Part shown: piece after piece, positions 14,109 through 42,394 of the stretch
How positions within the stretch are numbered: the first letter of the stretch is position 1
Layout: each line of letters begins with the position of its first letter
Assembly (NCBI GenBank): GCA_964631915.1
Contig: CAZWAS010000016.1
Coordinates: forward strand, 1 to 44,111
DNA: 44,111 nucleotides
Direction of reading: 5' to 3'
Origin: an uncultured Spirochaetales bacterium
GTDB lineage: Bacteria > Spirochaetota > Spirochaetia > CAZWAS01
Made by a program: the position numbers and the translations under genes
Notes under the pieces: generated by a model
What the model was told of the DNA's origin: nothing
Seen by the model: the letters and a program-made list of their open reading frames with translations, nothing else
The model's database searches: none

Positions 14109-15062
14109 TTATGGGATAAAATGGGTGCCTGTTTTCCCCTTCAGAGCTACTGCAGCTTTGTTCAGAGACGTTATGACTGCCTGTTTCCCTCCCCAGCGCA
14201 CGAACCTAAGACAGGCCTCGACTTTCGGCCCCATGGACCCTTTTAAAAAATGCCCTTCTTTCATATAAGCTTCCGCTTCTGGAATCGTCACCCGGTCGAG
14301 AAACCGCATATCCGGCTTGTTGAAGTCAAGCGCTACTTTTTCCACATCGGTGAGTATGAGGAAGATATCGGCGTTCACTGCCTGGGCGAGCTTGAACCCT
14401 GCCTTGTCCTTATCGATCACCGCATTGATGCCCGAAAGTTCGCCGTCTGCGCTCCTTGTGACCGGGATGCCGCCGCCTCCGGATGCGATGACTATGATGC
14501 CATTCGCAATGAGCGAATTGATGATAGTCTCCTCTACGATGCCCTCTGGTTCCGGAGACGGCACGACTCTCCGCCACCCTTTTTCTGCGCCCGGTTTCAC
14601 TTCCTTGACAGTATATCCTTTTGTGCTTTGAAGTCTGAGCGCCTCTTCGCGCGTATAGAAAGGCCCTACCGGTTTAGTGGGATCGAGGAAATCCGGATCA
14701 TCTTCGCGCACGAGCACTTGGGTAACTATGCTGCACACTGGAACGGACAATCCTTCTCTCGCAAGGCGGTAGCGAAGCCGGTTTTGTATCATCCATCCTA
14801 TCTGACCCTGCGTCATGGCACCGCAGATCGCGAGGCTTTGCGCTGGCACGAGTTTATCCGCTTCCTCCTGCTGGATGAGAAGGGCTCCCGCCTGCGGTCC
14901 GTTTCCGTGCGTGATGACGATGTTATACCCTTGTTTTGCAATGTTCGCTATTTGTGTGGCAGTATCATCTATGTTTTTGAATTGTTCTTCGGTCGTGCCC
15001 CGCTGATTGGGCTGGTTGATCGCATTGCCCCCGAGTGCAATGACGAGCGTCTCCTTCTGCAT
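14109..15062 (-). CDS. arcC: Carbamate kinase
   Basis: 317 aa with LVIALGGNA, ITHGNGPQ, ASGGGGIPV and KDKAGFKLA, a typical carbamate-kinase pattern. Confidence 0.9.
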   Translation of the reverse strand: MQKETLVIALGGNAINQPNQRGTTEEQFKNIDDTATQIANIAKQGYNIVITHGNGPQAGALLIQQEEADKLVPAQSLAICGAMTQGQIGWMIQNRLRYRLAREGLSVPVCSIVTQVLVREDDPDFLDPTKPVGPFYTREEALRLQSTKGYTVKEVKPGAEKGWRRVVPSPEPEGIVEETIINSLIANGIIVIASGGGGIPVTRSADGELSGINAVIDKDKAGFKLAQAVNADIFLILTDVEKVALDFNKPDMRFLDRVTIPEAEAYMKEGHFLKGSMGPKVEACLRFVRWGGKQAVITSLNKAAVALKGKTGTHFIP

Positions 15063-15095: not shown

Positions 15096-15145
15096 GGCCT
15101 GACCAGTACGCAGTATAGGATAAGACGCTTTTTTTCCCCTGTCAA
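15096..15145 (-). promoter_or_regulatory. arcC promoter plus shared operator motif (site 1)
   Basis: The minus strand reads TTGACA (15145-15140), 17 nt, TATCCT (15122-15117), 11 nt, TGGTCAGGCC (15105-15096). An A-tract precedes the -35. Confidence 0.55.
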
Positions 15146-15158: not shown

Positions 15159-16487
15159 TCAGTTTATGAGTTTGATACAATCCTCGAGGATCGCAAGCCC
15201 TGTATCGATCTCCGACCTGGTTATGATGAGCGGAGGAGCTATGCGGATCGACGATTCTCCTGCTCCAAGGAGGAGAAGCCCTTTTTTGAACGCCAGTTCG
15301 AGGAGCTTGTTCCGTTTGTCCTTTGCCGGAGTTTTTTTGGTGTCCTGTATGAATTCCACCCCTAGCATGAGCCCGAGGCCGCGCACATCCCCTATCACGG
15401 AGTATTTTCCCTTCAGCGAGAGCAGGGCCTGTTTCATGTATGTTCCTTCGGATGCCGCACGGCTTACTATGTTTTCCTCTTTCAGCACACGGAGCACCGC
15501 TTTCGCCGCTTCCATGATCACCGGATTGCCGTTCAGCGTACCTTCATGGGCCCCTTCGTCCCAGTTCATCACTTCCGCTTTCGCCACAGCTGCTCCAGCG
15601 GGGAAGCCGTTCGCCATAGCCTTGGATACCGTGATAATGTCCGGTTCCAGTCCGAAGTGTTCGCTTGCGAACATCTTTCCGGTTCTGCCGAATCCGGTCT
15701 GTACCTCGTCGATGATGAGGAGAATGCCGTATTTTCGTGCTGTGTCTTGCAGGTGTTTGAAATAGCCGTCAGGAGGAACGATGTAGCCGCCTGCACCTTG
15801 GATAGGCTCAGCGAGGATAAATGCGACCTCGTCCGGAGGCGTGATCTTTTTCAGCATGACATCCGTAAAATATTCCAAGCATGCATATCCGCACGAGGGG
15901 AATTCCCTGTTGAACAAGCACCGATAACAGTTTGGATATGGAATATATTGACCTATTGGATATAATGGAGCAAATCCTCTCCTTGCAGACACGTTTGTAG
16001 TCGTGAAACTCACTGCTCCGAGGGTTCTGCCGTGAAAACCGTTTATAAAGCCTATGCCGTAGTTTCGCCGGGTATGCCATTTTGCCATCTTTATTGCAGT
16101 ATCCACAGACTCGCTTCCTGAATTGCTAAAAAACACTTTTTTTGCAAAGTTCCCGGGAGTCACCTTCACAAGCTCTTCTGCATAGTCGATCTGCGGGGTC
16201 GTGTAATAGTCCAAGCTGTTGATGAACATGAGTTTATCCATCTGACGGCGCACAGCTTCTATGATTTCAGGATGCCTATGTCCCAAAGCGGTGACTGCTA
16301 TGCCCGATCCGAAATCGAGGAAAACATTCCCATCGACATCCTCCACATACACGCCTTCTTCTCTGTGCCCCACGAGCGCCGAAGACCGCGAGAGGGAAGG
16401 AGAGAGGATAGCTGTGTCTCGTTCGATGAATTTCCGAGCTTCCGGTCCCGGAAGTTCGGTAATGATTTTGGGACCAGTATACTTCAT
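15159..16487 (-). CDS. Class-III (GabT/ArgD-like) PLP-dependent aminotransferase
   Basis: Start at ATG 16487 (AGGTG 6 nt upstream). N-terminal LPGPEARKF, GSESVD, the aspartate motif IIDEVQTGFGRTG, and the PLV lysine region ITVSKA. Confidence 0.85.
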   Translation of the reverse strand: MKYTGPKIITELPGPEARKFIERDTAILSPSLSRSSALVGHREEGVYVEDVDGNVFLDFGSGIAVTALGHRHPEIIEAVRRQMDKLMFINSLDYYTTPQIDYAEELVKVTPGNFAKKVFFSNSGSESVDTAIKMAKWHTRRNYGIGFINGFHGRTLGAVSFTTTNVSARRGFAPLYPIGQYIPYPNCYRCLFNREFPSCGYACLEYFTDVMLKKITPPDEVAFILAEPIQGAGGYIVPPDGYFKHLQDTARKYGILLIIDEVQTGFGRTGKMFASEHFGLEPDIITVSKAMANGFPAGAAVAKAEVMNWDEGAHEGTLNGNPVIMEAAKAVLRVLKEENIVSRAASEGTYMKQALLSLKGKYSVIGDVRGLGLMLGVEFIQDTKKTPAKDKRNKLLELAFKKGLLLLGAGESSIRIAPPLIITRSEIDTGLAILEDCIKLIN

Positions 16488-16527
16488 GGTATGCACCTGC
16501 ACTGATGGTTTGTTGTCTCAGGCACTG

Positions 16528-16733: not shown

Positions 16734-16780
16734 TTGACAGATACTACGCATAGGTCTATCATTAGATGTGTGGTCAGGCC
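16734..16780 (+). promoter_or_regulatory. Promoter of the gntR-led operon plus shared operator motif (site 2)
   Basis: A8 tract, TTGACA (16734-16739), 17 nt, TATCAT (16757-16762), 8 nt, TGGTCAGGCC (16771-16780). Confidence 0.6.
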
Positions 16781-16839: not shown

Positions 16840-17556
16840 ATGTTCGAACAAGTACAGCCTCAAAAATATTATATGCAGATCGCTCGGCAGATACGCAATC
16901 TGATACGAGACGGCAAACTCAAGGTGGGGGATCAACTGCCTCCGGAGCGCAGCCTCGCTATACAGTTCAACGCTTCCAGGGCCAGCATACGGGAAGCTTT
17001 AAGCGCGCTCGAGATGCTCGGCCTCATAGAGTGTAAGGGGGGGCAGGGGAATTTCATTAAGGCAGACGGTTCCGAAGGAACGATCGATGGGGAACTCCTT
17101 AAGACACTGCTCAGGGATCATGATCCATATGAGATATTCGAGGCTCGACTCGAAATGGAACCGAACCTCGCCGCTCTCGCTGCTGATCGAGCCACCGACC
17201 AAGAACGAAAAAAGCTCCAGTCCCATGTGCAGAAACTCAAAGACTTGGGAGTGAAACTGAAAAGCGATCCAGCATTCATCGATGAATACATGGAAGAGGA
17301 TCGGAAATATCATCTTGAGATAGGCAGATGTGCACATAATAGCGTGCTGTTCACGGTTTTTTCCGGGGTGAACCTGATGATGAAAGAAATGCATTGGAAG
17401 GTGATGAAAAGCAGAGGTCTTGCAACTCAGGAAAACGTGGAAGCGTATGAAAAAGAGCATGAAGCAATTTTGGACGCGATATTGGCGAAGAATCCGAAGC
17501 TTGCTCACGCGGAGATGAAGAAACACATTCTCATTTTGAAGAAGACTTTATTTTAA
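16840..17556 (+). CDS. GntR-family transcriptional regulator, FadR/FCD subfamily
   Basis: N-terminal winged HTH (LPPERSLAIQFNASRASIREALSALEMLGLI) and a helical C-terminal FCD-like domain (EARLEMEPNLAALAA...H). Confidence 0.85.
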   Translation: MFEQVQPQKYYMQIARQIRNLIRDGKLKVGDQLPPERSLAIQFNASRASIREALSALEMLGLIECKGGQGNFIKADGSEGTIDGELLKTLLRDHDPYEIFEARLEMEPNLAALAADRATDQERKKLQSHVQKLKDLGVKLKSDPAFIDEYMEEDRKYHLEIGRCAHNSVLFTVFSGVNLMMKEMHWKVMKSRGLATQENVEAYEKEHEAILDAILAKNPKLAHAEMKKHILILKKTLF

Positions 17557-18551: not shown

Positions 18552-18579
18552 CGAACTGGCGGATACACGGGAGGTGCGT

Positions 18580-20649
18580 ATGAAACTGCGAATGGGAGTA
18601 GATACCGGAGGAACGTTCACCGATTGTGTCGTTATAGACGAAAAGGGCACAATCCATACATTCAAAGAACTCTCGACTCCGAAAGATCCCTCCATCGGGC
18701 TTTACAATGTCATAAGGAAAGCCGCAGGGTATTTCAAAAAAGATCTGAGGAGCTTCCTGGGCGATCTAGATTTCTTCGCCCACGGTACTACCGTTGCGAC
18801 GAATACTCTTCTTACAGGAACCGGAGCCAAGACGGGATTGATCCTTACAAAGGGTTTCCGCGACACGCTTGAAATGCGGAGGGCTCATAAAGAGAACATA
18901 TGGGACCTGTATCTTCCTGTTCCTTCTCCCCTGGTTCCTCGCTATCTCAGGCTAGGAGTCACAGAGCGGATCGATTATAAAGGTGATATTATACAGCCTC
19001 TTGTAGAAGAGGATGTATACAGGATCTGCGAGTTTTTCAAAAAAGAGCAGGTGAAAGCCGTTGCAATCTGTACGCTGTTTTCCTTTCTCAACGATACGCA
19101 CGAAAAGCGGATACGGGACATCGTGGCCAAAGAAATGCCTGACGCGTTCATATCCATATCTTCCGAAGTTCTTCCACAGATACGCGAATATGAACGTATG
19201 TCGACTACCGTATCGAACGCGTATGTCGGTCCGAAACTCACCGTGTATCTTTCCACGCTCGAAAAAAAACTCAAGGATGACGGACTAAAGCGGGCATTTT
19301 ATATCACCGCTTCGAACGGCGGCGTTATGACCGCCGAAACCGCCATAAGGCACGCTTCAGCCACGCTGCTCTCTGGCCCTGCCGCCGGAGCAGTAGGAGG
19401 CATGTTCTTCGCCGACCTTCTTAAACGCGGGAATCTGATCATTATGGACATGGGCGGAACCTCTTTCGATGTCACATTAGTGAGCGGAGGCAAGGTCACC
19501 CTCAGTACAGAAGGGGAGATAGCCCGGTACAGAGTCGCGAAACCCATGATAGACATCAACACGATCGGAGCAGGCGGAGGTTCCATAGCGTGGATCGATT
19601 CAGGCGGTATGCTCAAGGTGGGACCCGCCTCTGCAGGATCGGATCCCGGGCCTGTGTGCTACGAATTGGGAGGTACGAAGCCTACGGTTACGGATTCCAA
19701 CCTCCTGCTCGGATACCTCGACAAGGATTATTTCCTCGGCGGCGAGATGAAGGTGAACGAGGAGAAGACACGAGAGGCCATGAGGCGGGAAATCGCGGAT
19801 CCGCTCGGTATTTCCGAAACGGAGGCTGCATCCGGCATTTTCAGGATCATCAATCAGAGCATGGCGGATGCGACAAAGGTCGTATCCGTACAGCGGGGGC
19901 ACGATCCGCGCGAATACGCATTGGTGAGCGCCGGAGGGGCCTGTTCCATACACGCATGCAAGATCGCCGAAGAGGTGGGATCTGAATGCGTCATAGTACC
20001 AAAGGCAGCGAGCGTGTTCTGCGCCTTGGGGATGCTCGAATCCGACATCAGGCTCGACAATGTGAAAACGTATAACGCGTTCATACCCGGAATAGATCTT
20101 GCGGATTTCAATGCGGTCATCGAAGCAGTGGAAAAGCAGGCGCTCAAGGAACTTCTGCAGGAAGGAGTCGAACGGGAACGGGCCCACCTGGTCCGGTATC
20201 TCGATATCCGCTATGTCGGACAACACCATGAGGTGACTGTCGAGATTCCTGCAGGATGCAGACTCGAGGACAAGCATCTTTCGATCATCGCCGACGCTTT
20301 CCACAAGGCGCATGAAAGGCTCTACACGTATTCTACGCCAGAGAATCCCCTCGAAGTGATGAATCTCAGGATCACTGCAGTGGGTTCTGTGGATAAGACC
20401 GGCCTCTTCGAGATTGCAGCGAGTTTGTCCGATCCTTCAGCCGCATACAAAGGAAAACGGAAGGTCTATTTCGAAGAGAAAAACGGATTCTTCGAAGTAC
20501 CCGTATACAATAGGGATCTGCTCAAGCCGGGTAATAGAATACCCGGCCCTGCGGTCATAGAAGAGCGCATCACCACCATCATCGTCCATCCGAAATGGGA
20601 TTCCTTTGTGGACAGCTATCAGAATATCATCATGGAGGTGAGGAAGTGA
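18580..20649 (+). CDS. hyuA: Hydantoinase/oxoprolinase family, A subunit (ATP-dependent)
   Basis: N-terminal GVDTGGTFTD, later DMGGTSFD. About 690 aa. Start at ATG 18580 after GGGAGG. Confidence 0.85.
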   Translation: MKLRMGVDTGGTFTDCVVIDEKGTIHTFKELSTPKDPSIGLYNVIRKAAGYFKKDLRSFLGDLDFFAHGTTVATNTLLTGTGAKTGLILTKGFRDTLEMRRAHKENIWDLYLPVPSPLVPRYLRLGVTERIDYKGDIIQPLVEEDVYRICEFFKKEQVKAVAICTLFSFLNDTHEKRIRDIVAKEMPDAFISISSEVLPQIREYERMSTTVSNAYVGPKLTVYLSTLEKKLKDDGLKRAFYITASNGGVMTAETAIRHASATLLSGPAAGAVGGMFFADLLKRGNLIIMDMGGTSFDVTLVSGGKVTLSTEGEIARYRVAKPMIDINTIGAGGGSIAWIDSGGMLKVGPASAGSDPGPVCYELGGTKPTVTDSNLLLGYLDKDYFLGGEMKVNEEKTREAMRREIADPLGISETEAASGIFRIINQSMADATKVVSVQRGHDPREYALVSAGGACSIHACKIAEEVGSECVIVPKAASVFCALGMLESDIRLDNVKTYNAFIPGIDLADFNAVIEAVEKQALKELLQEGVERERAHLVRYLDIRYVGQHHEVTVEIPAGCRLEDKHLSIIADAFHKAHERLYTYSTPENPLEVMNLRITAVGSVDKTGLFEIAASLSDPSAAYKGKRKVYFEEKNGFFEVPVYNRDLLKPGNRIPGPAVIEERITTIIVHPKWDSFVDSYQNIIMEVRK

Positions 20650-22403
20650 AATCCGAAAGAAAAAAAGAGTTTGAAGGCGCGAACGATCCCATAACCCTTT
20701 CAGTCATCTACAATCGGCTTCTCACCATCAACCAGGAAATGGGAATAACCATGATCAACACCTCCATTTCCCCCATTTTCGCGGAGGTACACGATTTTTC
20801 CTGCGCCATCTGCGATTGGGACAACAGGATAGTGGCTCAAATCGACGGCGTGCCGTCGCATACTGCTTCCGCTATGGAAGCAGTGAAGGCCATAAGCAGG
20901 GAATTCAAAGGCGACATACATCCAGGGGATGTGTTCGTGCTGAACGATCCGTATCTCGGAGGAACCCACTTGCCCGATGTCACGATCATGAAGCCGATAT
21001 TCTTTGACGGCGAACTCCAGTTCATAGCGATCAACAGAGCTCACCACGGGGATGTCGGAGGCATAGAGCCGGGCTCTTACGCGCCGAGCGCAAGGGAGCT
21101 TTTTCATGAAGGCATACGGATTCCGCCGCTCCGCATTTACAAGAATGAGAAACCCATCATGGATGTGGTAAACATGATCAGGATCAACACGCGGATGCCT
21201 GATGCATTATGGGTCGACATGAAGGCCCAAGTCGCATCGTGCAGGGTTGCGGAAAAGCGCATCATAGAGCTGATTTCCAAGTACGGCGTTGCGAAAACCC
21301 GCGCTACCGTGGAGGATATCCATCTGTATGCGGAACGCAGAATGCGCAAGGAAATCGAAAAGCTCAAAGACGGCGTATACGAAGGGGAAGTTTTCCTCGA
21401 TTCGGACGGTTTTTCCGATAATCCGATCAGGATCAAAGTCAGCATTACGGTGAAGGGCGACGAGGCGTTCGTCGATTTCTCAGGATCCGATCCTCAGGTA
21501 ACGGGCTTTGTCAATTCGCCCATGGCGAACACCGCCACCTGTGTGTACGTCGCATTCCTCACCACGGTGACGACGCCGGACATTCCGCATAACGAGGGAG
21601 TATATCGGCCAATCCATATAACGGCTCCGGAAGGTTCCGTCGTTAATCCGCGATTTCCCGCTCCCGTAGCTTCCTGTACGCTCGATACCGCATGTGCGAT
21701 TCTCGAAGCCTGTTGGATCGCATTGTCAAAGGTGCTTCCCGAACGGGTACCCGCCGGATGGAACCGATGGAACGGACCCACGATCACGGGTATAGATCCG
21801 CGGAATAACAATTTTTATGTCATGTTTGGATTCAACGGATTCGGCGGGGCCGGAGGCATGCCTGGCATGGACGGCAGGCATTATATAGGAGACGGCATAG
21901 ATTTGGGCGGCCTCATAGCGCCGAACATCGAAACGAACGAAAAGGATTATCCGCACATCACGGAGTTCAACGAGTTTACGATGGATTCCTGCGGCGCGGG
22001 AAAATTCCGAGGCGGATGCGGAGCGAAATACAGGCTGAAGGTCTACGACGAGTCTCCAACCCTTGTCATGTTCGGCGACGGGAAAAAGAATCCGCCGTAC
22101 GGGTTGTTCGGGGGACAACCGGGTTCGTGCAACAAAGCGTTTATCAACGAAGGTATGCCTTCCGAGCGGGAACTGAAAGCTAAAGAGTCGGTGGTTCTCG
22201 CAAAAGGCGATACCTATACTTCGTACCCGTCGGGCGGTGGCGGTTGGGGAAATCCGAAAGAACGCGATCCGGAGCTGGTGCGAATGGACGCCAGAAACGA
22301 AATCATTTCCCGCGAAAGCGCGGAGAAGCTCTACGGCGTCGCTCTCGAAGGCGATGATTACCGTATCAATCTGGAAAAAACTAAATTCTTGCGGAGCAAA
22401 TGA
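20646..22403 (+). CDS. hyuB: Hydantoinase/oxoprolinase family, B subunit
   Basis: The GTG start overlaps the hyuA stop (GTGA). N-terminal DPITLSVIYNRL, NDPYLGGTHLPD. Confidence 0.85.
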   Translation: MKSERKKEFEGANDPITLSVIYNRLLTINQEMGITMINTSISPIFAEVHDFSCAICDWDNRIVAQIDGVPSHTASAMEAVKAISREFKGDIHPGDVFVLNDPYLGGTHLPDVTIMKPIFFDGELQFIAINRAHHGDVGGIEPGSYAPSARELFHEGIRIPPLRIYKNEKPIMDVVNMIRINTRMPDALWVDMKAQVASCRVAEKRIIELISKYGVAKTRATVEDIHLYAERRMRKEIEKLKDGVYEGEVFLDSDGFSDNPIRIKVSITVKGDEAFVDFSGSDPQVTGFVNSPMANTATCVYVAFLTTVTTPDIPHNEGVYRPIHITAPEGSVVNPRFPAPVASCTLDTACAILEACWIALSKVLPERVPAGWNRWNGPTITGIDPRNNNFYVMFGFNGFGGAGGMPGMDGRHYIGDGIDLGGLIAPNIETNEKDYPHITEFNEFTMDSCGAGKFRGGCGAKYRLKVYDESPTLVMFGDGKKNPPYGLFGGQPGSCNKAFINEGMPSERELKAKESVVLAKGDTYTSYPSGGGGWGNPKERDPELVRMDARNEIISRESAEKLYGVALEGDDYRINLEKTKFLRSK

Positions 22404-22417
22404 TAAAGGGGGAATGT

Positions 22418-23554
22418 ATGGCTGACATAAAAAGGGTTGCTGTATTGGGAGCAGGAAGCGGGGGATTCATGTGCGCCGCGGATATGGGAAGTCTCGGCTA
22501 TGAAGTGGCCCTGTTTTCGCGCGATATGGCTAGAGTAAAGGGTGTGAAGGAAAAGGGAAGCATCGAAGTGCTCGACATAGACTCCAAGCCCACGGGAATG
22601 GCGGGGAAAATAGCCCTGGTGACCAGCGACATCAAAGAAGCTGTCAAAGGTGCTCAAGTCATCCTGAATCCGATCCCGTACTTCGCGTGTGAAGAATACG
22701 CCCGACTCGTGGCTCCCCATCTCGAAGAAGGACAGACGGTGATCTATCTCGGCAAAGGAGGAGCATGCCTCACCTGGGCAAAGGTCCTCAAAGAGCTTGG
22801 CATAAAGAAAAAGGTCTATCTCGCGGATACGAATACGCTTCCCTACGGTGCTTCCAGAAAAGGCGAATATCAGGTAAGGCTCGAAAACAGAACGCAGAAC
22901 CTGATACTCGGAACCTTCCCGGGCAAAGACGTCGACCGCGTGGCGGATACCGCATACAAGCTCTTCACTAAAGAGCACGGATACGAAATACGCAAAGGAC
23001 AGAACGCCATAGACTCGATCCTCGTGGATTACAATGCGATTACCCACACGCCGCCTATGATCTGCAATGCGGCGCGTATAGAGTCCGGCGAAAAGAATTT
23101 CTTCCTGTTCGGAAAAAAAGAAAACACTCCGGGAGTGGTTAGACTCATCGAGCGGATAGATAGGGAACGGATGGCGATCGGAAAAGCTCTCGGCATGAAA
23201 CAGTACACCCTTGAAGAAGAAATCATGATGGTGAAGTGGAATCCTCACGGCGAAACGTATGTTCTCCCACTTTACGAGGCGATCCACACCCCATTTCTCG
23301 AAGTATGCGAAGGGCCCTATACGCTGGACACTCGGCATCTGAAGGAAGACGTTCCTTACGGGCTCGTCACCTATTCCTCTCTGGGCAACATGCTTGGAGT
23401 GCCGACTCCTGTGACGGACGCCATAATAACGCTCGCTGAAGGGCTTTTAGACAGAGATTTCCGGAGCATGGGTAGAACCGTGGAAGCTATGGGCATAGAC
23501 CCGAAATGGTCGGTAGAGCAGCTCAAGAAATATCTCAAAGAAGGAGTCGTCTGA
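22418..23554 (+). CDS. NAD(P)-dependent opine (octopine/nopaline) dehydrogenase family protein
   Basis: Rossmann VAVLGAGSGG. C-terminal family pattern HTPPMICNAARIE...IDRERMAIGKALG...KEDVPYGLV...LGVPTPVTDAII. Start at ATG 22418 (AAGGGGGAA upstream). Confidence 0.7.
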   Translation: MADIKRVAVLGAGSGGFMCAADMGSLGYEVALFSRDMARVKGVKEKGSIEVLDIDSKPTGMAGKIALVTSDIKEAVKGAQVILNPIPYFACEEYARLVAPHLEEGQTVIYLGKGGACLTWAKVLKELGIKKKVYLADTNTLPYGASRKGEYQVRLENRTQNLILGTFPGKDVDRVADTAYKLFTKEHGYEIRKGQNAIDSILVDYNAITHTPPMICNAARIESGEKNFFLFGKKENTPGVVRLIERIDRERMAIGKALGMKQYTLEEEIMMVKWNPHGETYVLPLYEAIHTPFLEVCEGPYTLDTRHLKEDVPYGLVTYSSLGNMLGVPTPVTDAIITLAEGLLDRDFRSMGRTVEAMGIDPKWSVEQLKKYLKEGVV

Positions 23555-23593: not shown

Positions 23594-23646
23594 TGTGTTT
23601 TAGAGTATAATGAAGGATATTTGAAACCATATAAAGGGAGAAGAAC

Positions 23647-24648
23647 ATGAGCGATCTGAAAGGAAGAGATTTAAAAGGAATAGCCGATTTCTCGCGGGAT
23701 GAGATAGAGCTCACCCTCGAAGTGTCCAAGCTGCTGAAAATGGAACTGAAGATGGGCAAAGCCCACCGCCTCCTCGAAGGCAAGAGCCTCGCAGGCATAT
23801 TCGAGACTCCTTCTACGCGTACGAGCATTTCTTTCGAAACTGCTATGGTTCAGCTCGGCGGACATATGCACTATCTCGATCAGCACAGGCTCTGGGTCGG
23901 AGATGCCGGAGAAGAAGATTGGTACGACACGATTAAGACCATAGACCGCTATGTGGACGGAATAGCGTATAGGGCGGTTCGACGCGACCTTTTGGAACGC
24001 GCTGCTGAGCTGGCGAGCATACCGCTCATCAATGCATCCTGCCCTGTCGAGCATCCTTGTCAGGCCTTTGCCGATATCATGACCATGATCGAAAAAAAAG
24101 GTCCGGTGAGAAAATCCAAAATGGCTATGTGCTGGGGATACAGAAAAGCGAATCCTCCTGCAGGACTTACGAACTCGCTCATGTATATGGCGGGCAAACT
24201 CGGTTTCGAGTTCGTCATCGCCTGTCCCGAGGGATTCGATCCGGATATGAACATCAAAGCGGAAGCGGATAAGGAAGCGGAACTGAACGGCGGAAGCATA
24301 AAGATCGTGCGTTCCTACGAGGAAGCGGTGCGGGATGCGGACTTCATCAATGTGTACTCCTGGGTTTCTCCCGAAGTGTTCGCAAAGGGACCGGAAACGA
24401 ATTACACCGGAGGAGAGGAGTTCCAGGCGAAAAAAGCGAAACTCAAGAAAGAATGGTGCGTGACGAAGAAAATCGTGGATATGGCGAGCAAGGATTGTCA
24501 GGTTATGCACTGCATGCCCATATCAAGAAACAACGAAGTGACGGACGAAGTGCTGAACTCCGAAAAATCCATCATCTTCGATGAAGCGGAAAACAGGCTT
24601 CATACGGAAAAGGCGATCCTTGCCCTGCTCATGGGCGGATACAGATAA
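23647..24648 (+). CDS. OTC/ATC-superfamily carbamoyltransferase with non-canonical substrate motifs
   Basis: 333 aa. Has STRTS in place of STRTR, HPCQ and HCMP. The ornithine DxxxSMG loop is replaced by NVYSWVSPE. Confidence 0.8.
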   Translation: MSDLKGRDLKGIADFSRDEIELTLEVSKLLKMELKMGKAHRLLEGKSLAGIFETPSTRTSISFETAMVQLGGHMHYLDQHRLWVGDAGEEDWYDTIKTIDRYVDGIAYRAVRRDLLERAAELASIPLINASCPVEHPCQAFADIMTMIEKKGPVRKSKMAMCWGYRKANPPAGLTNSLMYMAGKLGFEFVIACPEGFDPDMNIKAEADKEAELNGGSIKIVRSYEEAVRDADFINVYSWVSPEVFAKGPETNYTGGEEFQAKKAKLKKEWCVTKKIVDMASKDCQVMHCMPISRNNEVTDEVLNSEKSIIFDEAENRLHTEKAILALLMGGYR

Positions 24649-24660
24649 GGAGCAGATTAT

Positions 24661-33925: not shown

Positions 33926-34327
33926 ATGGGTACCGGTTTTACCTTCGATTACGAAAAATGTACCGAATGTGAACGATGCATGGCAACGTGTTCGATAGTC
34001 AAGAAGGGATTCGTCCAGCTTCAGCAGTCGATGATCGTCATCGGCAAGAACTGGCCCGAACTCCCGGAAATCCGCGTGTGCAGATTCGACGACTGCAAAG
34101 GGCATCCCTGCATAGCATCATGTCCGGTGGAAGCCATATCTGATAAGGACGGCATAATACTCATAGATGAAAATACCTGTACCGGTTGTGGGGCATGCGT
34201 AGAAGAGTGCCCGTACCGGGCCATATATATGATCGACGGTATTGCGAGAAAATGCGACTTCTGCGGTGGCGATCCCGAATGCGTCAAAGCGTGCGTGACC
34301 GTGGCCATCGCGAAGAAAGGAGGATGA
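33926..34327 (+). CDS. Poly-[4Fe-4S] ferredoxin-domain protein
   Basis: CTECERCMATC, CIASCP, CTGCGACVEECP and CDFCGGDPECVKAC cluster motifs. Confidence 0.85.
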   Translation: MGTGFTFDYEKCTECERCMATCSIVKKGFVQLQQSMIVIGKNWPELPEIRVCRFDDCKGHPCIASCPVEAISDKDGIILIDENTCTGCGACVEECPYRAIYMIDGIARKCDFCGGDPECVKACVTVAIAKKGG

Positions 34328-34329
34328 GT

Positions 34330-36159
34330 ATGGCGAGCAGCATGTACGATACCCTGCTCCGCATCGATTGTGGAAAAAAAAGTTCAGTACCGGTGCAGGT
34401 CGGAGGAGAGCTGAAGTCATACATCGGAGGCATGGGATATGGGACAAAGATCCTCATCGATGAAGTCGATCCGAAAGCCGATCCTCTGTCCGCTCAGAAC
34501 AAGATCGTGTTGACAGTAGGACCACTCACCGGCACTACGGCACCGATGTTTCCGCAGGCTTGTATAGTCACCAAGTCGCCACTCACAAAAAGCATTTTGA
34601 ACTGCTATGCAGGTGGTTTTCTCGGTGCCGAAGTGAAATTCTGTGGACTCGACGGAATAATCCTCGAGGGGAAAGCCGACCAGTGGAGCCTCATACTCGT
34701 GGAGGACCGCAAGGTGAGTTTCCACGATGCTGGGCCGGTCATGGGCAAGAGCACGCACGAAACCGAAGCGTACATGAAGAAGAAATTCGGAAGCGATGTG
34801 AAGACCCTTTCCATAGGCGTGGCTGGAGAGAAGGTGGTTGCCATGTCCTCGATCTTCTCCGAAACGAGGACCTTCGGCAGAGGCGGCGCCGGAGCAATCC
34901 TCGGCTCGAAGCGCATAAAAGGCATGGCGTTCCGGGGTACGCGGGGAGTCGATGTGTTCGATCGAAAGCGGTTCGCGGAACTTGTGAACGAAAACGTCGA
35001 AGGTATAAAGGCCGCATGCAAAGAAGAGCATAACCTCGTGGGCATGTTCTCCCGCGTCGGTACCGGTGCAGGAATGGGGCTCATAAACCGCAAAGGAGCT
35101 CTCGCTACGAAAAATCATCAGTATGGAAGTTTTCCCGAAGGTTCAGCGATAGACGGATACGCGTATGCGAAAAATTTCTACACGCGCGCCATTTCCTGCT
35201 ATGGATGCCCTGTGCACTGCGGCATGCTGCATAAATACCGGAGACCGGACAATTCGGATGCGTGGCTACGCGGACCTGAATACGAAACCATGTTTTCCCT
35301 CGGATCCGACCTTCTGAATGACGATCCTGTAACGCTTGCCGACGCAAACCAGCTCTGCGAGGATTACGGTATGGATACGCTCACCGTAGGAGTCACCATA
35401 GCGTGGGCGTTCGAAATGGCAGAGAAGGTGATCCTCAAAGATCCTGATCTGCCGCTCAAGTTTGGAGACAGGCCTTCTATTCTAGGACTCATTCGGAAAA
35501 TAGGAGAGCGCGAGGGAATCGGCAACCTGCTGGCGGAAGGTCCTAAGATAGCTGCAGAGAAAACGGGGAAAGAAACCGTAGGGGCTGCCATGCAGATCAA
35601 GAATTCCGGATTTGCTGCATGGATGCCGCGGCGCATGAAGGGAGTCGCTCTCTCGTTTGCGACTTCCAACCGCGGAGCTTGCCATAAGCGGGCGCCTATC
35701 GGCGCCGAAATAATGGGTGCCATAGACATGGATTCGTATGACGGAAAAGCTCAAATAGTGAAAGATATTCAGGATACGGTGAATGCCGTTTTCACGTTGG
35801 TGGCATGCAGATTCCACGAATTCATAAGCCCGAAGGAATTATATCCGCAGTTGGTGGAGGCTGCGACAGGCGTTCATATGAGCCTTGACGAATTCATAAA
35901 AGTGGGGGAGCGCATCTGGAACTTAGAACGGATTTTTAATATCGGCGCCGGATTCACGAGAAACGACGACAATCTTCCGGAACGCTGTTTCGAACCTATA
36001 AAAGGCGAAGCTTCCCAGGGAGCTGTATTGGATAAAAAGAAATTCGCGGCCATGCTGGACGAATACTATACGTTGCGCGGATGGGATCTCGAAGGCAAGC
36101 CAACTCCTGCAACGCTTAAGCGACTAGGAATCGAGGAATACGCGAGGTTTATAACATGA
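34330..36159 (+). CDS. Aldehyde:ferredoxin oxidoreductase family (tungsten/molybdopterin AOR)
   Basis: About 609 aa. AOR N-terminal domain pattern (LLRIDCG...GGMGYGTKIL). [4Fe-4S] ligands CYGCPVHC. The track start 34186 overlaps the ferredoxin gene, so ATG 34330 was chosen. Confidence 0.8.
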   Translation: MASSMYDTLLRIDCGKKSSVPVQVGGELKSYIGGMGYGTKILIDEVDPKADPLSAQNKIVLTVGPLTGTTAPMFPQACIVTKSPLTKSILNCYAGGFLGAEVKFCGLDGIILEGKADQWSLILVEDRKVSFHDAGPVMGKSTHETEAYMKKKFGSDVKTLSIGVAGEKVVAMSSIFSETRTFGRGGAGAILGSKRIKGMAFRGTRGVDVFDRKRFAELVNENVEGIKAACKEEHNLVGMFSRVGTGAGMGLINRKGALATKNHQYGSFPEGSAIDGYAYAKNFYTRAISCYGCPVHCGMLHKYRRPDNSDAWLRGPEYETMFSLGSDLLNDDPVTLADANQLCEDYGMDTLTVGVTIAWAFEMAEKVILKDPDLPLKFGDRPSILGLIRKIGEREGIGNLLAEGPKIAAEKTGKETVGAAMQIKNSGFAAWMPRRMKGVALSFATSNRGACHKRAPIGAEIMGAIDMDSYDGKAQIVKDIQDTVNAVFTLVACRFHEFISPKELYPQLVEAATGVHMSLDEFIKVGERIWNLERIFNIGAGFTRNDDNLPERCFEPIKGEASQGAVLDKKKFAAMLDEYYTLRGWDLEGKPTPATLKRLGIEEYARFIT

Positions 36160-37001
36160 AGTATATCATACCTGAAAGCCTCGAAGCTGCATGCAGGGCG
36201 CTGGCTTCCGCGGATTCGTTCCGTGCACTTGCAGGTGGGACCGATCTTGCAGTGGTCATAGCGGATACGCTTAACATGCCCGAAGCCTTGGTCGATATTT
36301 CGGCTCTCCGAGAACTCAACGGCATGGATTTCTCCCAAGAGGGACTCGTCATCCGAGCGTGTACACGCATTGCGGATATTGCAGCTGCAGAGAAGCTTCC
36401 GCTCTGCCTCGTGCAGGGAGCCTCGTCCATAGGCTCCCCCCAGATACGCAATCTCGGCACCATCGGCGGCAATGTGTGCAACGCATCTCCTTGCGGAGAC
36501 ACGCTTGCGCCGCTCGTATGCCTCGATGCGAAATTCGTGCTCGTCTCCATTTCGGGAAAACGCGAGGTCCCTGCGGAGGAGTTTTTCCTCGGACCGAAGA
36601 AGACGGTGCTGAAGGGCGGAGAGCTGCTCGCAGAAATCAAGATAGACAAACGGCACTTGTCCGGTACTTCCTCTTTCAGGATGATAGGAAAGCGCAACGG
36701 TCAGGTTATTTCCCAGGTGAACGCATCCGTATGGCTTTCGCTCACAGGAAGTACGATCGAGGATATCAGGGCAGCTGTGGGGTCGGTAGCGCCTGTCCCG
36801 CTCAGGCTTACAGCGACCGAAGCATATTTGAAAGGCAGAAAACGGGGGAATATCGATTTCACGGAAGTCGGAAGAATCATCAATACGGAAATTAAACCCA
36901 TTTCGGATGTGAGAGCTTCCGAGGAATACCGTAGGCTTGTGACGGTATCACTTTTCCGGGAAGTCTTGGAAGAAGCGCTCAGCAGCGGAAAGGGGGAGTG
37001 A
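36156..37001 (+). CDS. Molybdenum hydroxylase FAD-binding subunit (XdhB/CoxM/YgfM-like)
   Basis: LAGGTDLAV motif. 281 aa. The start overlaps the AOR stop (ATGA). Confidence 0.8.
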   Translation: MKYIIPESLEAACRALASADSFRALAGGTDLAVVIADTLNMPEALVDISALRELNGMDFSQEGLVIRACTRIADIAAAEKLPLCLVQGASSIGSPQIRNLGTIGGNVCNASPCGDTLAPLVCLDAKFVLVSISGKREVPAEEFFLGPKKTVLKGGELLAEIKIDKRHLSGTSSFRMIGKRNGQVISQVNASVWLSLTGSTIEDIRAAVGSVAPVPLRLTATEAYLKGRKRGNIDFTEVGRIINTEIKPISDVRASEEYRRLVTVSLFREVLEEALSSGKGE

Positions 37002-37004
37002 GGT

Positions 37005-37484
37005 ATGCAGATCACGTTCATATGCAACGGCGAACAGGTGAGTGTCGAAGCAGCTCCGGACATGAGGGCGCTCGACCTCCTCCGCGATACACTCGGACTC
37101 ACCGGTACCAAGGAAGGTTGCGGACGCGGGGAATGCGGCGCCTGTACGATTCTGCTCGACGGTGCTCCTGTGAATGCATGCCTAGTGTATGCCGCGAAAC
37201 TCAATGGAAGAACAGTTGAGACCATCGAAGGCCTATCCTCTAACGATGGAAAACTTCATCCGATACAGGAGGCCTTTCTCGATGAAGGGGCTGTGCAATG
37301 CGGTTACTGCACTCCTGGCATGGTGATGAGCACAAAGGCGCTTCTCGACAAAAATCCGAAACCCACTGTTGCGGACATCGAAGAGGCGTTGAGCGGAAAT
37401 TTCTGCCGCTGTACAGGATACGCGAAGATCGTGAAAGCCGTGCAGAAGGCTGCAGGTACGAAGACCGGAGGTGCACATGAATAA
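37005..37484 (+). CDS. Molybdenum hydroxylase [2Fe-2S] subunit
   Basis: GCGRGECGACTILLDG, CGYCTPGM, CRCTGY. Confidence 0.9.
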   Translation: MQITFICNGEQVSVEAAPDMRALDLLRDTLGLTGTKEGCGRGECGACTILLDGAPVNACLVYAAKLNGRTVETIEGLSSNDGKLHPIQEAFLDEGAVQCGYCTPGMVMSTKALLDKNPKPTVADIEEALSGNFCRCTGYAKIVKAVQKAAGTKTGGAHE

Positions 37485-39762
37485 CGAACCACTCCGCGTT
37501 GTGGGAAAGCGCGTTAGGAAGATCGATGCGTACGAGCTTGTAACCGGCAAGGCGAAATTCACGGGCGATATGCGGTTTCCGGGAATGCTGTACGGGTATG
37601 CGGCCAGGTCTTCTGTTTCTGCGGGAACCATCAGGCGCATCGACGTATCGAAGGCAGCTGAAAGCGACGATGTGGTGTTCGTCATGACGGGAAAAGACAT
37701 ACCCGGCCCGAACATCATAGGCATTCTTCCTCCTCTGGATCAGCCTGTGCTGGCCACCGAGGTTATTCGCTACGCAGGCGAATCCGTAGCCTTAGTGGTC
37801 GCAAAGACTCAGCTCGCTGCAAAACGGGCGGCTCGGAAGGTTTCGCTTGAAGTCGACGAACTCGTACCGATCTTCACGATCGACGAAGCCCTCAAGGAAG
37901 GGGCGCGGAAGATACATGCATCCGGGAATATAACCTTTTCCAAGAAACTGATCAAAGGCGATGTGCAGAAAGGCTTTAAAGAAGCAGATGTGATCCTTGA
38001 AGACACATTTGAAACATCGAATCAAGAGCATGCATACCTCGAACCAGAAGTGGTGTGCGCAGTTCCGTCAGGAGACGGCCGTATCACCGTATATGCTTCC
38101 TGCCAGTCGCCGTTTCATATCCGTGGACATATAGCGTCCAACCTGAACGTGCCGGTCTCGCAGGTGAAGGTGATACAAGCGTACACAGGCGGTTCGTTCG
38201 GCGGTAAGGACGATGTTGCTACGGAAATCGGAGCGCTCGCCGCAATTGCTGCATGCAAGCTCGGGAAACCGATCATGATAGCCCATGAGCGGGACGAGTC
38301 TATCATAGGGAGCAATCTGCGCCATGCATCGCGGATCACAGTGAAAACCGGTGCCAAAAGAGATGGCACTATAGTCGCTCGGGAAATACGAGTGCTCCTC
38401 GATGGGGGAGCGTATGCATCCGAGAGCCCCTTCGTCACGATGAAGGCGCTCATCCATGCTGCAGGACCGTATAAGATCGATAACGTATTCGTGGAATCCA
38501 CCGCCGTGTACACGAACAAAACCTACTGTGGAGCGTTCAGGGGATTCGGAGTGCCTCAGGTTACCTTTGCATCGGAATCCCAAATGGACGAACTGGCTAA
38601 GCGGCTTTCCATGGATCCTGTGGAACTGAGGATGAAGAACGCACTGAAACCCGGGGATACCACGGCTACGGGCCAATCCTATAAGCAATCGGTCGGCCTC
38701 ATTGAGACCATCAAACGCATTCAGGAGAAACGCATCGCTCATCAGCTTCCGAAGAACGACGGCCGCTGGTTGTACGGACGGGGCGTTTCGTGCATGCTTC
38801 AGGGCATTTCGAACGGTGCAGAAGGCATCGACGTCGTAGGAGCCCATGTCCAGGTGTGCCAGGACGGCAGTGCCATCGTAGGAGTCGGCCTGACGGAGCT
38901 CGGTCAGGGGGCGCGGACAGTGTACGCCCAAATCGCGGCAGAGGTGCTTGGTATTTCCCTCGAAAAAGTGACCGTGAAGCAGGTGGATACGGACTCGGTG
39001 CACGATTCGGGACCTACGGTGGCTTCCAGAAGCACTACGGTAGGCGGTATGGCGGTGAAACTCGCTGCGGAGGAAGTGAAGAAGTCTCTCGTTTCCATGG
39101 CAGCCCTCATGTTTAAAGTCGAAGAAAAGCTTATAATATTGAAAGAAAATTTTGCGGTACTCGCGGTAGACGACAAGGCGCGGATACCGCTGAAAGATGT
39201 GGCGGTTGCCGCATATTGGACGGGTTTTCCGCTCATGAACCTCGCGTTTTCCAAAGCTCCGCCTTCGAACTACGATCACGATACGCATCAGGGCGACATA
39301 TACATCGCCTATAACTTCGGAACCCATCTCATGGACATTAGGATAGACAGGTTCACCGGCAGCGTCGAAGTCCTGCGCCACTATGCCGCCCACGATGTGG
39401 GAAAGGTCGTAAACCCCATGGGACTCGAAGGACAGGTCGAAGGGGCTTCCCTCATAGGGTTCGGTCTCGCACACATGGAGGATATCATCTACCGGGAAGG
39501 AAAGATCATCAATGCGAATTTCGCGGATTATGCGATTCCTTCTATTAAAGACCGCCTTCCTACGGAAACGATCCCTGTGGAAGATCCCAATCCTCACGGC
39601 CCTTTCGGTGCAAAAGGAGTGGGAGAACCGCCTGTTGCGGGTGCGGCATCCGTATTCGCGAATGCGGTGGCTGCGGCCACAGGCATACGATTTAAGAAGT
39701 TGCCCATCACGCGGCAGGATATTTTGAAGGCGCTTGAGGAGTTGGGCAATTCCGGACGATAA
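37477..39762 (+). CDS. Molybdenum hydroxylase large (molybdopterin-binding) subunit, xanthine-dehydrogenase family
   Basis: 761 aa. YTGGSFGGKDD Moco motif. Aldehyde-oxidase/XDH a/b-hammerhead N-terminus (VVGKRVRKIDAYELVTGKAKFTGD). ATG 37477 overlaps the upstream gene by 8 nt. Confidence 0.85.
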   Translation: MNNEPLRVVGKRVRKIDAYELVTGKAKFTGDMRFPGMLYGYAARSSVSAGTIRRIDVSKAAESDDVVFVMTGKDIPGPNIIGILPPLDQPVLATEVIRYAGESVALVVAKTQLAAKRAARKVSLEVDELVPIFTIDEALKEGARKIHASGNITFSKKLIKGDVQKGFKEADVILEDTFETSNQEHAYLEPEVVCAVPSGDGRITVYASCQSPFHIRGHIASNLNVPVSQVKVIQAYTGGSFGGKDDVATEIGALAAIAACKLGKPIMIAHERDESIIGSNLRHASRITVKTGAKRDGTIVAREIRVLLDGGAYASESPFVTMKALIHAAGPYKIDNVFVESTAVYTNKTYCGAFRGFGVPQVTFASESQMDELAKRLSMDPVELRMKNALKPGDTTATGQSYKQSVGLIETIKRIQEKRIAHQLPKNDGRWLYGRGVSCMLQGISNGAEGIDVVGAHVQVCQDGSAIVGVGLTELGQGARTVYAQIAAEVLGISLEKVTVKQVDTDSVHDSGPTVASRSTTVGGMAVKLAAEEVKKSLVSMAALMFKVEEKLIILKENFAVLAVDDKARIPLKDVAVAAYWTGFPLMNLAFSKAPPSNYDHDTHQGDIYIAYNFGTHLMDIRIDRFTGSVEVLRHYAAHDVGKVVNPMGLEGQVEGASLIGFGLAHMEDIIYREGKIINANFADYAIPSIKDRLPTETIPVEDPNPHGPFGAKGVGEPPVAGAASVFANAVAAATGIRFKKLPITRQDILKALEELGNSGR

Positions 39763-39805
39763 AACGCTTGTCCGGATCGACACGCGGATTGAAGGGGAGG
39801 TAGGT

Positions 39806-41209: not shown

Positions 41210-42394
41210 ATGGCAGTGAATCTTAAAACCGAATTCTGCGGTCTATCGTTCAAGAATCCTATCATCGTCCCTGCAGGAGTGCACGGAAGGGACGGGAAGA
41301 CTATCAAAACGGTGAGCGAATCCGGAGTTGCAGGCATCTGCACCAAGACGATCGTGTCCCAGCCTGCGCCCGACGTTTTGCCTTGTTTTCAGGCAGTGAA
41401 ATCCGGGATGATCAATTCGGTATTCGGCTCGGACAAACCTTCTCAATATTGGTTCGAGGAAGGCATAAAACAGGCAAAGGAAGGCGATGCACTGGTCATC
41501 GCGAACCTTGCGGGGTTTTTCCCTGAAGAAGCAGCGGAGCTTGCGCTGAAGGCTGCCAATGCCGGAGCGGATATGATCGAGGTTCCCACCCATTGCCCGC
41601 ATATGGGAGAAATTCTCATGGCTATGTTCCCCGGCCTCTCTATGCCGGAACCGAAACTGACAGATCTTGAACCCATGAAGCGTTCCGTGAAGCTCATTAA
41701 ACAGGCAGTGAAGATTCCCGTCGTCATAAAACTTTCAGGAACTTTCTCGCATATTGTCAGGGAATGGGCGATCGGAGTGAAGGAATCGGGTGCAGACGGC
41801 ATAGCGTGCTCGGATGCTTTGGGGCCTGCTCTTTCCATCGATATCCGCACCGGAGAGCCGAAGCTCGGAGGCCCCAGAGGCGTCGGAGGCCTTACCGGCC
41901 CTGCAATCATGCCCATAACGCTTAGGATGGTGCTAGACATAGCTCTGGCAATCGATCTGCCCATCGTAGGCGTAGGGGGAGTAAGCACTGCAGCGGATGT
42001 AGTCGAATACCTCATGGCCGGCGCCACGCTTGTCGGTGTGTGCACAGCAGGCCATATGAAGGGCATCGAACAGTACGGTAAGATCATCCGCGATCTCGAG
42101 AAACTCCTCGGAGAATTGGGAGCTTCGAGCCCGGCCGATGTCCGGGGGCTTGCGCTGAAACGGATCCGTGGACGGAAGGAGCGGGGTTTAGTTGCCGTCA
42201 CGAAACCTATAGTCCCTGACATCGACAGGGATCTCTGCACCTCATGCGGCCGATGTCAAGAAGTATGCGCGTACGATGCAGCTCGAGTGGATGGAAAAAA
42301 TAAAGCATATATTATAGCTGAAAACTGCATCGGATGCGGCCTTTGCGTAAGCGTTTGTCCTACCAGAGCCATGACACAGGAATACTATCGTTGA
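41210..42394 (+). CDS. Dihydroorotate/dihydropyrimidine dehydrogenase-family flavoprotein (PreA-like) with a C-terminal 2x[4Fe-4S] domain
   Basis: LSFKNPIIVPAG, the active-site-loop analogue THCPHMGE, GVGGVSTAADV, and C-terminal CTSCGRCQEVC and CIGCGLCVSVCP. Confidence 0.8.
   Translation: MAVNLKTEFCGLSFKNPIIVPAGVHGRDGKTIKTVSESGVAGICTKTIVSQPAPDVLPCFQAVKSGMINSVFGSDKPSQYWFEEGIKQAKEGDALVIANLAGFFPEEAAELALKAANAGADMIEVPTHCPHMGEILMAMFPGLSMPEPKLTDLEPMKRSVKLIKQAVKIPVVIKLSGTFSHIVREWAIGVKESGADGIACSDALGPALSIDIRTGEPKLGGPRGVGGLTGPAIMPITLRMVLDIALAIDLPIVGVGGVSTAADVVEYLMAGATLVGVCTAGHMKGIEQYGKIIRDLEKLLGELGASSPADVRGLALKRIRGRKERGLVAVTKPIVPDIDRDLCTSCGRCQEVCAYDAARVDGKNKAYIIAENCIGCGLCVSVCPTRAMTQEYYR

Follow-up and report, generated by a model that had tools for sequence, protein, structure and literature searches.

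Which compound is the second substrate of a transcarbamylase that resembles ornithine carbamoyltransferase (OTC) in sequence and fold and is encoded beside an ATP-dependent hydantoinase? The question arises from a 44,111-nucleotide contig of an uncultured Spirochaetales bacterium (CAZWAS010000016.1), analyzed over its whole length and called the window here. The gene occupies 23647..24648 on the plus strand and encodes a protein of 333 residues, assigned to a group that we call the STRTS clade on the basis of Pfam and NCBIfam searches, alignment, a structure model and a tree. Alignment indicates an intact carbamoyl phosphate site next to a remodeled second-substrate site. The enzyme probably acts catabolically, by phosphorolysis of the ureido product of the pathway that its own gene cluster encodes.

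Both transcarbamylase domains were found in the open reading frame product by Pfam (OTCace_N, PF02729, E = 9.7e-38; OTCace, PF00185, E = 8.2e-40). The SxRT, HPxQ and HxLP motifs, the β4 arginine and the C-terminal arginine are all present, which places the protein in the Asp/Orn transcarbamylase superfamily. The corresponding residues include HPCQ at 136-139, HCMP at 288-291, R109 and R317. HCMP has Met in place of the Leu of HxLP, and members of the clade carry either Met or Leu there. The fifth residue of STRTS (in P-S-T-R-T-S) is Ser60, with the codon AGC at 23824..23826 on the plus strand in the DNA letters. A first-pass annotation made from the DNA letters had reported the HPxQ and HCxP motifs, STRTS with its AGC-encoded serine, and NVYSWVSPE in the region of the OTC DxxxSMG loop. 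All three readings hold, the last by alignment to Escherichia coli ArgI.

The AlphaFold model of the protein (pLDDT 92.8) has the OTC fold, and only the 80s loop and the 240s loop are weak. The best fold match is Pyrococcus furiosus OTC (1a1s; TM 0.89/0.94), and P. furiosus OTC is also the closest solved structure by sequence (E = 2.6e-68, about 40% identity). The top fold matches are OTC and putrescine carbamoyltransferase (PTC), both of which are unknotted. The OTC model TIGR00658 is the best NCBIfam match, but its score of 270.9 bits falls about 10 bits short of the 280.85 cutoff. The other curated cutoffs are missed widely: 234.4 of 500 bits for PTC (TIGR04384), 175 of 288 for acetylornithine carbamoyltransferase (AOTCase; NF003384), 129.3 of 236.95 for aspartate carbamoyltransferase (ATC; TIGR00670) and 85.4 of 500 for YgeW (TIGR03316). 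The RxQxER motif of the ATC 240s loop is absent from the target.

The target was aligned with E. coli ArgI, PyrB and YgeW, with Enterococcus faecalis PtcA and with the OTC of its own genome, and the numbering agrees with Table 1 of a transcarbamylase review (PMC4581275). Every carbamoyl phosphate ligand is intact (S56, T57, R58, T59, R109, H136, Q139, C289, M290 and R317), identical to those of the P. furiosus (1pvv/1a1s) and E. coli (ArgI) OTCs, to which the protein is also similar in length. The ornithine site is lost. Lys53 of OTC is replaced by T54, N167 by G173, D231 by Y237 and M236 by P242; S235 is retained as S241. Compared with ArgI, the DxxxSMG positions are filled by Y237 and by S241, P242 and E243 of NVYSWVSPE, after which come 12 inserted residues. 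At the GDxRNN sequence of OTC the target has a Pro-rich insertion of 5 residues, WGYRKANPPAGLTNS, and the N167 to G173 replacement falls within it. The 80s-loop residue that reaches in from the neighboring subunit is Trp83, whereas OTC (Q82), PTC and YgeW have Gln. The pocket residues W83, Y165, Y237, W239 and F245 are aromatic or hydrophobic.

The same comparison separates the target from the other OTC-like enzymes. E. faecalis PtcA (4a8h/3txx) is about 33% identical and a good fold match, and PTC, too, is catabolic and makes ATP with carbamate kinase. The target nevertheless lacks the PTC 230s-loop motif (Y/W)(G/W)(V/L/I)x, PTC residues Q164, D227 and Y233 (it has G173, Y237 and E243), the C-terminal extension of ~20 residues and the Gln of the PTC FxQxSxRT motif, reading FETPSTRT instead. 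AOTCase and succinylornithine carbamoyltransferase (SOTCase) share an 80s-loop Trp with the target (W77 and W75 in those enzymes, PMC4581275; W83 here) and a Pro-rich loop at the same position. However, the conserved Lys that opens their 240s loop and the Glu that precedes their HPxQ are Y237 and C132 in the target, which also lacks their extended 120s loop, and both are anabolic enzymes of arginine operons.

The STRTS sequence was considered as a diagnostic feature by itself and rejected. The transcarbamylase motif is defined as SxRT (PMC4581275). Among the 150 nearest cluster representatives, that residue is K, A, L, H, M or W in OTCs that carry DxxxSMG. STRTS alone is therefore weak evidence, although it is invariant inside the clade and marks it. 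The WGYRKANPPAGLTNS insertion, Trp83 and Thr54, which the first-pass annotation had overlooked, are stronger differences. The signature of the clade, as read from the alignment, consists of STRTS, the 80s-loop Trp, a Pro-rich WGYRxANPPAGL loop and a Tyr at the position of OTC Asp231 and YgeW Lys270.

A search of 5.8 billion proteins returned >120 clusters at the 90% identity level that are related to the target at 71-85% identity. Nearly all are exactly 333 residues long and either unnamed or labeled OTC, and they come from metagenome-assembled genomes of Spirochaetes and Bipolaricaulota and from metagenomes. Clustering at 50% identity gives P0121 (62%) and P0122 (50%) as the next relatives, both with STRTS and the same loops. 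The loops are invariant or nearly so in 28 members (69-85% identity) and these two relatives, so the signature is not sequencing noise. A profile search found the family in 2 of 401 Spirochaetota species genomes, that of the window included, which indicates a patchy distribution. A scan of metagenome contigs with the family alignment was driven by the generic pattern DEAENRLH; nearly all of its matches were ordinary OTC-like genes, and a single one, L023, was a true member. Beyond P0121 and P0122 lies a large cloud of uncharacterized OTC-like proteins at about 40% identity, P0125-P0138 among them, in which a W...P.G..NS loop is present, Lys takes the place of OTC D231 and DxxxSMG is missing. 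An extended 120s loop, as in knotted transcarbamylases, occurs in several of these, and some pass NCBIfam OTC cutoffs and are probably misannotated.

Phylogeny was inferred with IQ-TREE from 67 proteins, with ArgI, PyrB (outgroup), YgeW, two PtcA proteins and the genome's own OTC as references. The STRTS clade has support of 100/98. It lies within a 99/96 group that consists solely of non-SMG proteins and includes E. coli YgeW; none of the DxxxSMG proteins belongs to it, nor do ArgI, PtcA or the genome's own OTC. In this tree, which has a single long-branch outgroup, a 96/90 group joins the STRTS clade and the YgeW-containing clade as separate sister lineages. A quick tree of 144 rows gave the same topology with weaker support. 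The first-pass annotation had proposed a phylogeny and held that membership in a functionally defined clade with the same motif variants would count against a new specificity. In the 67-protein tree, which has no AOTCase or SOTCase references, the protein instead belongs to its own clade outside OTC and PTC. These sequence relationships define a distinct clade, neither OTC nor ATC, whose members are commonly labeled OTC by annotation pipelines.

The genome has a canonical OTC of 317 residues on another contig, C1 (L009:1024-1977), with STRTR, HPTQ, GDGRNN, DVWASMG and HCLP. Its identity to the target is 34%, and the presence of this separate textbook enzyme indicates that the target is not the housekeeping OTC. 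The canonical gene adjoins a Lon-like protease fragment, far from the window. A PF00185 search of the genome gave three matches only and no YgeW-type gene.

Gene context was compared in about 15 loci from Spirochaetota, Bipolaricaulota, Tepidanaerobacteraceae and unassigned metagenome contigs, including those of the 62% and 50% relatives. The Spirochaetota loci are the window, L001, L004, L109 (genome G120) and the P0103 contig. In every locus examined the carbamoyltransferase occurs with HyuA, HyuB and an opine dehydrogenase. The order is almost always HyuA-HyuB-opine dehydrogenase-carbamoyltransferase, with the dehydrogenase between hyuB and the carbamoyltransferase gene or directly after hyuB. 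In the window the core block consists, on the plus strand, of HyuA (18574..20649; Pfam and synteny), HyuB (20595..22403; Pfam, NCBIfam and synteny; true start probably slightly downstream of 20595) and the opine dehydrogenase homologue (22400..23554; Pfam Octopine_DH, PDB 1bg6 and synteny). HyuA and HyuB are the A and B subunits of a hydantoinase/oxoprolinase for ATP-dependent ring opening, and the best NCBIfam match of HyuA, below cutoff, is caprolactamase alpha. The opine dehydrogenase is of the N-(1-D-carboxyethyl)-L-norvaline dehydrogenase (CENDH) type and matches that enzyme (1bg6) over its full length with E = 1.4e-40, which makes it a true relative.

Recurrent neighbors of the block are a GntR/FCD regulator, a divergent class III aminotransferase, carbamate kinase, and a ferredoxin with a tungsten-type aldehyde oxidoreductase; most clusters include or adjoin three-subunit xanthine dehydrogenase (XDH)-like, UacX-like and SsnA-like genes. 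In the spirochaete clusters the core is followed by a Grd-type selenoprotein system (B, E, A, fused CD, thioredoxin reductase and thioredoxin), the best NCBIfam matches of which are sarcosine reductase subunits, below cutoff. The cluster of G120, which represents a second spirochaete family, has no Grd genes; in their place, directly after the carbamoyltransferase gene, stands an M20 ArgE/DapE deacylase with partial similarity to YgeY (L109:7606-8940, minus strand, contig C80). This cluster also holds two PF01180/Fe-S reductase paralogues. In Tepidanaerobacteraceae (L003) the cluster closes with carbamate kinase and, directly after it, a 2,3-diaminopropionate ammonia-lyase (L003:19826-20992; G403:C9:86536-87708). 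The lyase scores above the YgeX equivalog cutoff, with 534 bits in one search and 555 in another, and a 2-oxoacid:ferredoxin oxidoreductase and an ADP-forming acyl-CoA synthetase are encoded upstream. Bipolaricaulota insert four genes, for a corrinoid protein, an MtmB-like protein, an MttB-like protein and an OCD-family protein whose best family is SbnB, the diaminopropionate-forming dehydrogenase. The MtmB-like proteins at L006:11692-13056 and L017:8218-9603 (minus strand) are 45% identical to each other, and their genes have no in-frame TAG, so they do not contain pyrrolysine. An MtmB-like protein and an acetate kinase are encoded on the opposite strand in the cluster of the 50% relative.

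Carbamate kinase, the proposed consumer of carbamoyl phosphate, is encoded in the window by arcC at 14109..15062 on the minus strand (TIGR00746, 396.6 bits, above the 358.25 cutoff). The carbamoyltransferase gene itself lies 92 nt from the upstream opine dehydrogenase gene and 12 nt from the downstream transketolase gene, and a simple scan of 23400-24800 found no promoter- or terminator-like site. With no sign of a separate transcription unit, it appears to lie inside a long same-strand operon headed by the GntR/FCD regulator gene (16840..17556, plus strand; identified by Pfam and conserved in other loci). The exact, near-palindromic 10-mer TGGTCAGGCC occurs in three copies in the window: in the arcC promoter (15096..15105, minus strand), in the gntR/operon promoter (16771..16780, plus strand) and upstream of an Ldh_2-family dehydrogenase gene (43011..43020, plus strand) that runs from 43091 to the window end. 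A promoter-like TTGACA/-10 pair precedes each copy by a few bases. By arithmetic, ~0.08 exact copies would be expected by chance, and a one-mismatch shuffle test was uninformative. Near-palindromes of this kind are bound by GntR-type regulators. A regulon link between the carbamoyltransferase operon and carbamate kinase is plausible on the basis of this common site, and the Ldh_2-family dehydrogenase would be a third member of the regulon. In other genomes the association is physical, with carbamate kinase adjacent in L003, L004, L012 and L023. Carbamate kinase is therefore co-located with the transcarbamylase in those loci and predicted to be co-regulated with it in the window, which makes plausible the regulon pairing suggested by the first-pass annotation.

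The protein is neither OTC nor ATC, its gene adjoins HyuAB in every locus examined, and a link to carbamate kinase exists; the most economical reading of its function is therefore catabolic phosphorolysis of the HyuAB product with conservation of ATP. We estimate a probability of about one half that the enzyme stands in for YgeW in a so far undescribed form of the reductive (2,8-dioxopurine-type) purine pathway, where it would phosphorolyse a HyuAB-made ureido acid and carbamate kinase would make ATP. A diureidopropionate-type substrate specifically is put forward with less assurance, as a tentative assignment. The reaction direction, substrate and pathway that we infer are as follows. A purine-type heterocycle would be converted to a hydantoin-type ring by the three-subunit XDH-like molybdenum hydroxylase (FAD, 2Fe-2S and Mo subunits; 36156..39762, plus strand), the PreA/PydAc/UacX-like reductase, a PF01180 flavoenzyme with two 4Fe-4S motifs (41210..42394, plus strand), and the SsnA/ATZ-TRZ-like amidohydrolase (39734..41185, plus strand; PDB matches), all of which are conserved near the block. 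HyuAB would open this ring at the expense of ATP; the product would be an N-carbamoyl (ureido) acid, with the 2,3-diureidopropionate type the likeliest. The STRTS-clade enzyme, probably a trimer like its relatives, would move the carbamoyl group onto phosphate, and carbamate kinase would convert carbamoyl phosphate and ADP to ATP, repaying the ATP cost of HyuAB.

The reductive uric acid pathway of E. coli and Clostridium starts with an XDH-like enzyme (XdhD), a PF01180 reductase (UacX) and SsnA and continues via HyuA; YgeW then forms carbamoyl phosphate from 2,3-diureidopropionate and phosphate, followed by YgeY, YgeX and the carbamate kinase YqeA (bioRxiv 10.1101/2025.05.19.654654; 10.1101/2025.04.24.650524). 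Oxoprolinase-type hydantoinases, opine dehydrogenases and glycine reductase are not mentioned in these two preprints. E. coli YgeW (b2870), the knotted transcarbamylase of that pathway, resembles the target in its superfamily, its membership of the 99/96 tree group and its gene linkage, which involves carbamate kinase together with XDH-like, reductase and SsnA-like proteins. For YgeW, too, the proposal is that a ureido acid yields carbamoyl phosphate from which ATP is made (same preprints). A W-x-Y motif and Pro-containing loop are shared (target CWGYRKANPPAGL aligned with YgeW TWAYSPSYGKPL), as is the 'SW' start of the 240s loop. In contrast, the two proteins are only about 25% identical, and the target (333 versus 396 residues) has neither the extended 120s loop of YgeW nor its additional helices at the N and C termini, and retains an OTC-like DEAENRLH helix. 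Their partners also differ: ATP-dependent HyuAB and an opine dehydrogenase accompany the target, whereas YgeW works with a metal-dependent HyuA, YgeY and YgeX. The hydrolytic N-carbamoyl amidases (N-carbamoylsarcosine amidohydrolase, HyuC, YgeY and UacY) would act at the same step, directly after a hydantoinase, but have unrelated folds and lose the energy that the target would save by keeping the ureido group as carbamoyl phosphate.

The XDH/UacX/SsnA-like trio, the L003 lyase, the G120 M20 deacylase, the SbnB-like gene and the tree position on the YgeW side point more towards a purine-type ureido acid than towards other substrates. Several observations weigh against this assignment. The amidohydrolase scores far under the SsnA cutoff (TIGR03314, 257.7 versus 455.5 bits), so the heterocycle may not be 2,8-dioxopurine. 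For a compound as polar as a diureido acid, a less aromatic and less hydrophobic pocket than the predicted one would be expected. The proposed second-substrate residues of YgeW are all lost, with Q160 replaced by S131, K270 by Y237 and D124 by V111, and YgeW S200/K203 are not kept either. Five of the six cluster-bearing genomes checked have no diaminopropionate ammonia-lyase. The genome of the window gave no match to this family, and its best YgeY-family match scores 113 bits, below the 321.5 cutoff; at 96% completeness, absence is likely, not proven. The purine scheme also leaves without a clear role the universal opine dehydrogenase and the frequent aminotransferase and aldehyde oxidoreductase, and it does not explain the Grd-type reductase of the spirochaetes or the corrinoid methyltransferase module of Bipolaricaulota. 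Finally, the tree includes no AOTCase, SOTCase, UGTCase or DPTCase references and has one long-branch outgroup.

These unexplained genes are accounted for by known chemistry if the enzyme is instead an N-carbamoylsarcosine:phosphate carbamoyltransferase of anaerobic creatinine/N-methylhydantoin catabolism, an alternative that we consider rather unlikely. The amidohydrolase would deaminate creatinine, HyuAB, which is of the archetypal ATP-dependent N-methylhydantoinase type, would open 1-methylhydantoin, and the carbamoyltransferase would yield sarcosine and carbamoyl phosphate. Sarcosine would go either to methylamine and glyoxylate via the opine dehydrogenase or to acetyl phosphate and methylamine via a Grd-type reductase. 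The opine dehydrogenase is a genuine CENDH-type enzyme, and these act on secondary-amine acids, the product expected from decarbamoylation of an N-alkylated ureido acid. The spirochaete clusters lead straight into Grd B/E/A/CD, with the sub-cutoff sarcosine reductase matches noted above, and the GrdC-GrdD fusion seen here also occurs in the N-methylhydantoin degrader Clostridium sp. FS41 (PMC4417704). MtmB-like genes adjoin the enzyme gene in Bipolaricaulota and in the 50%-identical relative, the aromatic, hydrophobic pocket would suit this substrate, and the aminotransferase, the aldehyde oxidoreductase and the DHDPS-family aldolase of the window could handle glyoxylate. On this scheme, however, the XDH-like and UacX-like enzymes present with most clusters have no role, and the L003 diaminopropionate ammonia-lyase and the G120 M20 deacylase are unexplained. 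The MtmB-like proteins lack pyrrolysine, and the sole studied non-pyrrolysine homologue is reported to act on quaternary amines and not on methylamine (PMC13044021). Two further points count against sarcosine. HyuAB-type enzymes also open 5-substituted hydantoins, and we know of no transcarbamylase that takes a secondary amine. It is unlikely that the clade is the first transcarbamylase for an N-alkylated (secondary-amine) acceptor, a sarcosine carbamoyltransferase that with HyuAB, the opine dehydrogenase and carbamate kinase would form a hitherto undescribed, ATP-neutral anaerobic route from creatinine/N-methylhydantoin-type rings to methylamine, a C2 acid and carbamoyl phosphate, feeding a new Grd-type reductase in spirochaetes. 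A hybrid, in which an N-methylated purine gives an N-alkylated ureido acid, is possible.

Phosphorolysis of another small ureido acid, such as N-carbamoylglycine (hydantoate), N-carbamoyl-β-alanine of the reductive pyrimidine route or oxalurate, seems quite unlikely. A PreA/PydA-like reductase and a PydB-related amidohydrolase are encoded in the window, successive action of a class III aminotransferase and an aldehyde oxidoreductase would suit an ω-amine such as β-alanine, and the Ldh_2-family dehydrogenase that carries the operator-like 10-mer belongs to the family of ureidoglycolate dehydrogenase. Yet HyuAB and a second ring-opening amidohydrolase would have no role on a monocyclic pyrimidine, the L003 lyase suggests a C3 diamine skeleton, and in E. 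coli the oxamate transcarbamylase is reportedly AllFGH, which is unrelated (PMC11326118). The first-pass annotation had reasoned that the enzyme conserves energy by phosphorolysis of the HyuAB product, and this general logic agrees with the non-OTC/ATC sequence, the HyuAB neighbors and the kinase link; the specific substrates it named (N-carbamoylsarcosine, N-carbamoylglycine and oxalurate) find less support in the context, which leans towards a purine-type compound. Transcarbamylase reactions are reversible, and the diaminopropionate- and diaminobutyrate-type transcarbamylases (DPTCase and DBTCase) fall in the OTC branch (PMC4581275), so synthesis of a ureido compound for secondary metabolism was also considered. 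This is very improbable: their HDLP and (T/S)RWQ(T/S)(T/M)G motifs are absent (the target has HCMP and YSWVSPE), no nonribosomal peptide synthetase or biosynthetic genes lie nearby, and the neighbors are all catabolic or redox enzymes and carbamate kinase. Least probable of all is an ordinary OTC or PTC with unusual loops. The closeness of P. furiosus OTC in sequence and fold, the near miss of TIGR00658 and the OTC labels of relatives suggest it, but the ornithine-binding side chains K53, N167, D231 and M236 are all replaced, the PTC determinants Q164, D227 and Y233 are absent, the protein falls outside the OTC and PTC clades, a canonical OTC is encoded elsewhere in the genome, and the window has no arginine or agmatine deiminase genes.

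Fewer than ten transcarbamylases, to our knowledge, have known second substrates. Each new specificity has exposed a new pathway, and YgeW was an orphan for >10 years until the 2,8-dioxopurine pathway was described. The STRTS clade is widespread in uncultured anaerobes and systematically mislabeled OTC, an annotation that inflates apparent arginine metabolism in metagenomes. Identification of its substrate would establish a new way in which nitrogen heterocycles are fermented in sediments, fens and the subsurface and would explain how an ATP-consuming ring opening can be energetically neutral. It would also give sense to the attached opine dehydrogenase, Grd-type selenoenzyme and non-pyrrolysine methyltransferase modules. 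The clade marks a conserved gene cluster that is absent from both 2025 pathway preprints (10.1101/2025.05.19.654654; 10.1101/2025.04.24.650524).

The remaining genes near the block vary between lineages. The genome of the window gave no match to the MtmB-like protein encoded in the Bipolaricaulota clusters. A DHDPS-family aldolase gene (17658-18551 in the window) lies upstream of the block in the window, L004 and L023, and a single-chain transketolase gene (24661-26685) is found only in the window and L004. The two were considered as pathway-defining and rejected; they are lineage-specific, absent from the remaining loci and outside the conserved core. The class III aminotransferase (15159..16502, minus strand; NCBIfam and synteny) and the tungsten-type aldehyde:ferredoxin oxidoreductase (34186..36159, plus strand) of the window are frequent cluster neighbors elsewhere. 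In L017:17385-20993 and L012:18286-20793 the aldehyde oxidoreductase is accompanied by a poly-ferredoxin and a small protein of ~98 residues, which in L017 belongs to the ThiS/MoaD family and is followed by a Pyr_redox_2 flavoprotein. These sets resemble AorABC-type bacterial tungsten enzymes.

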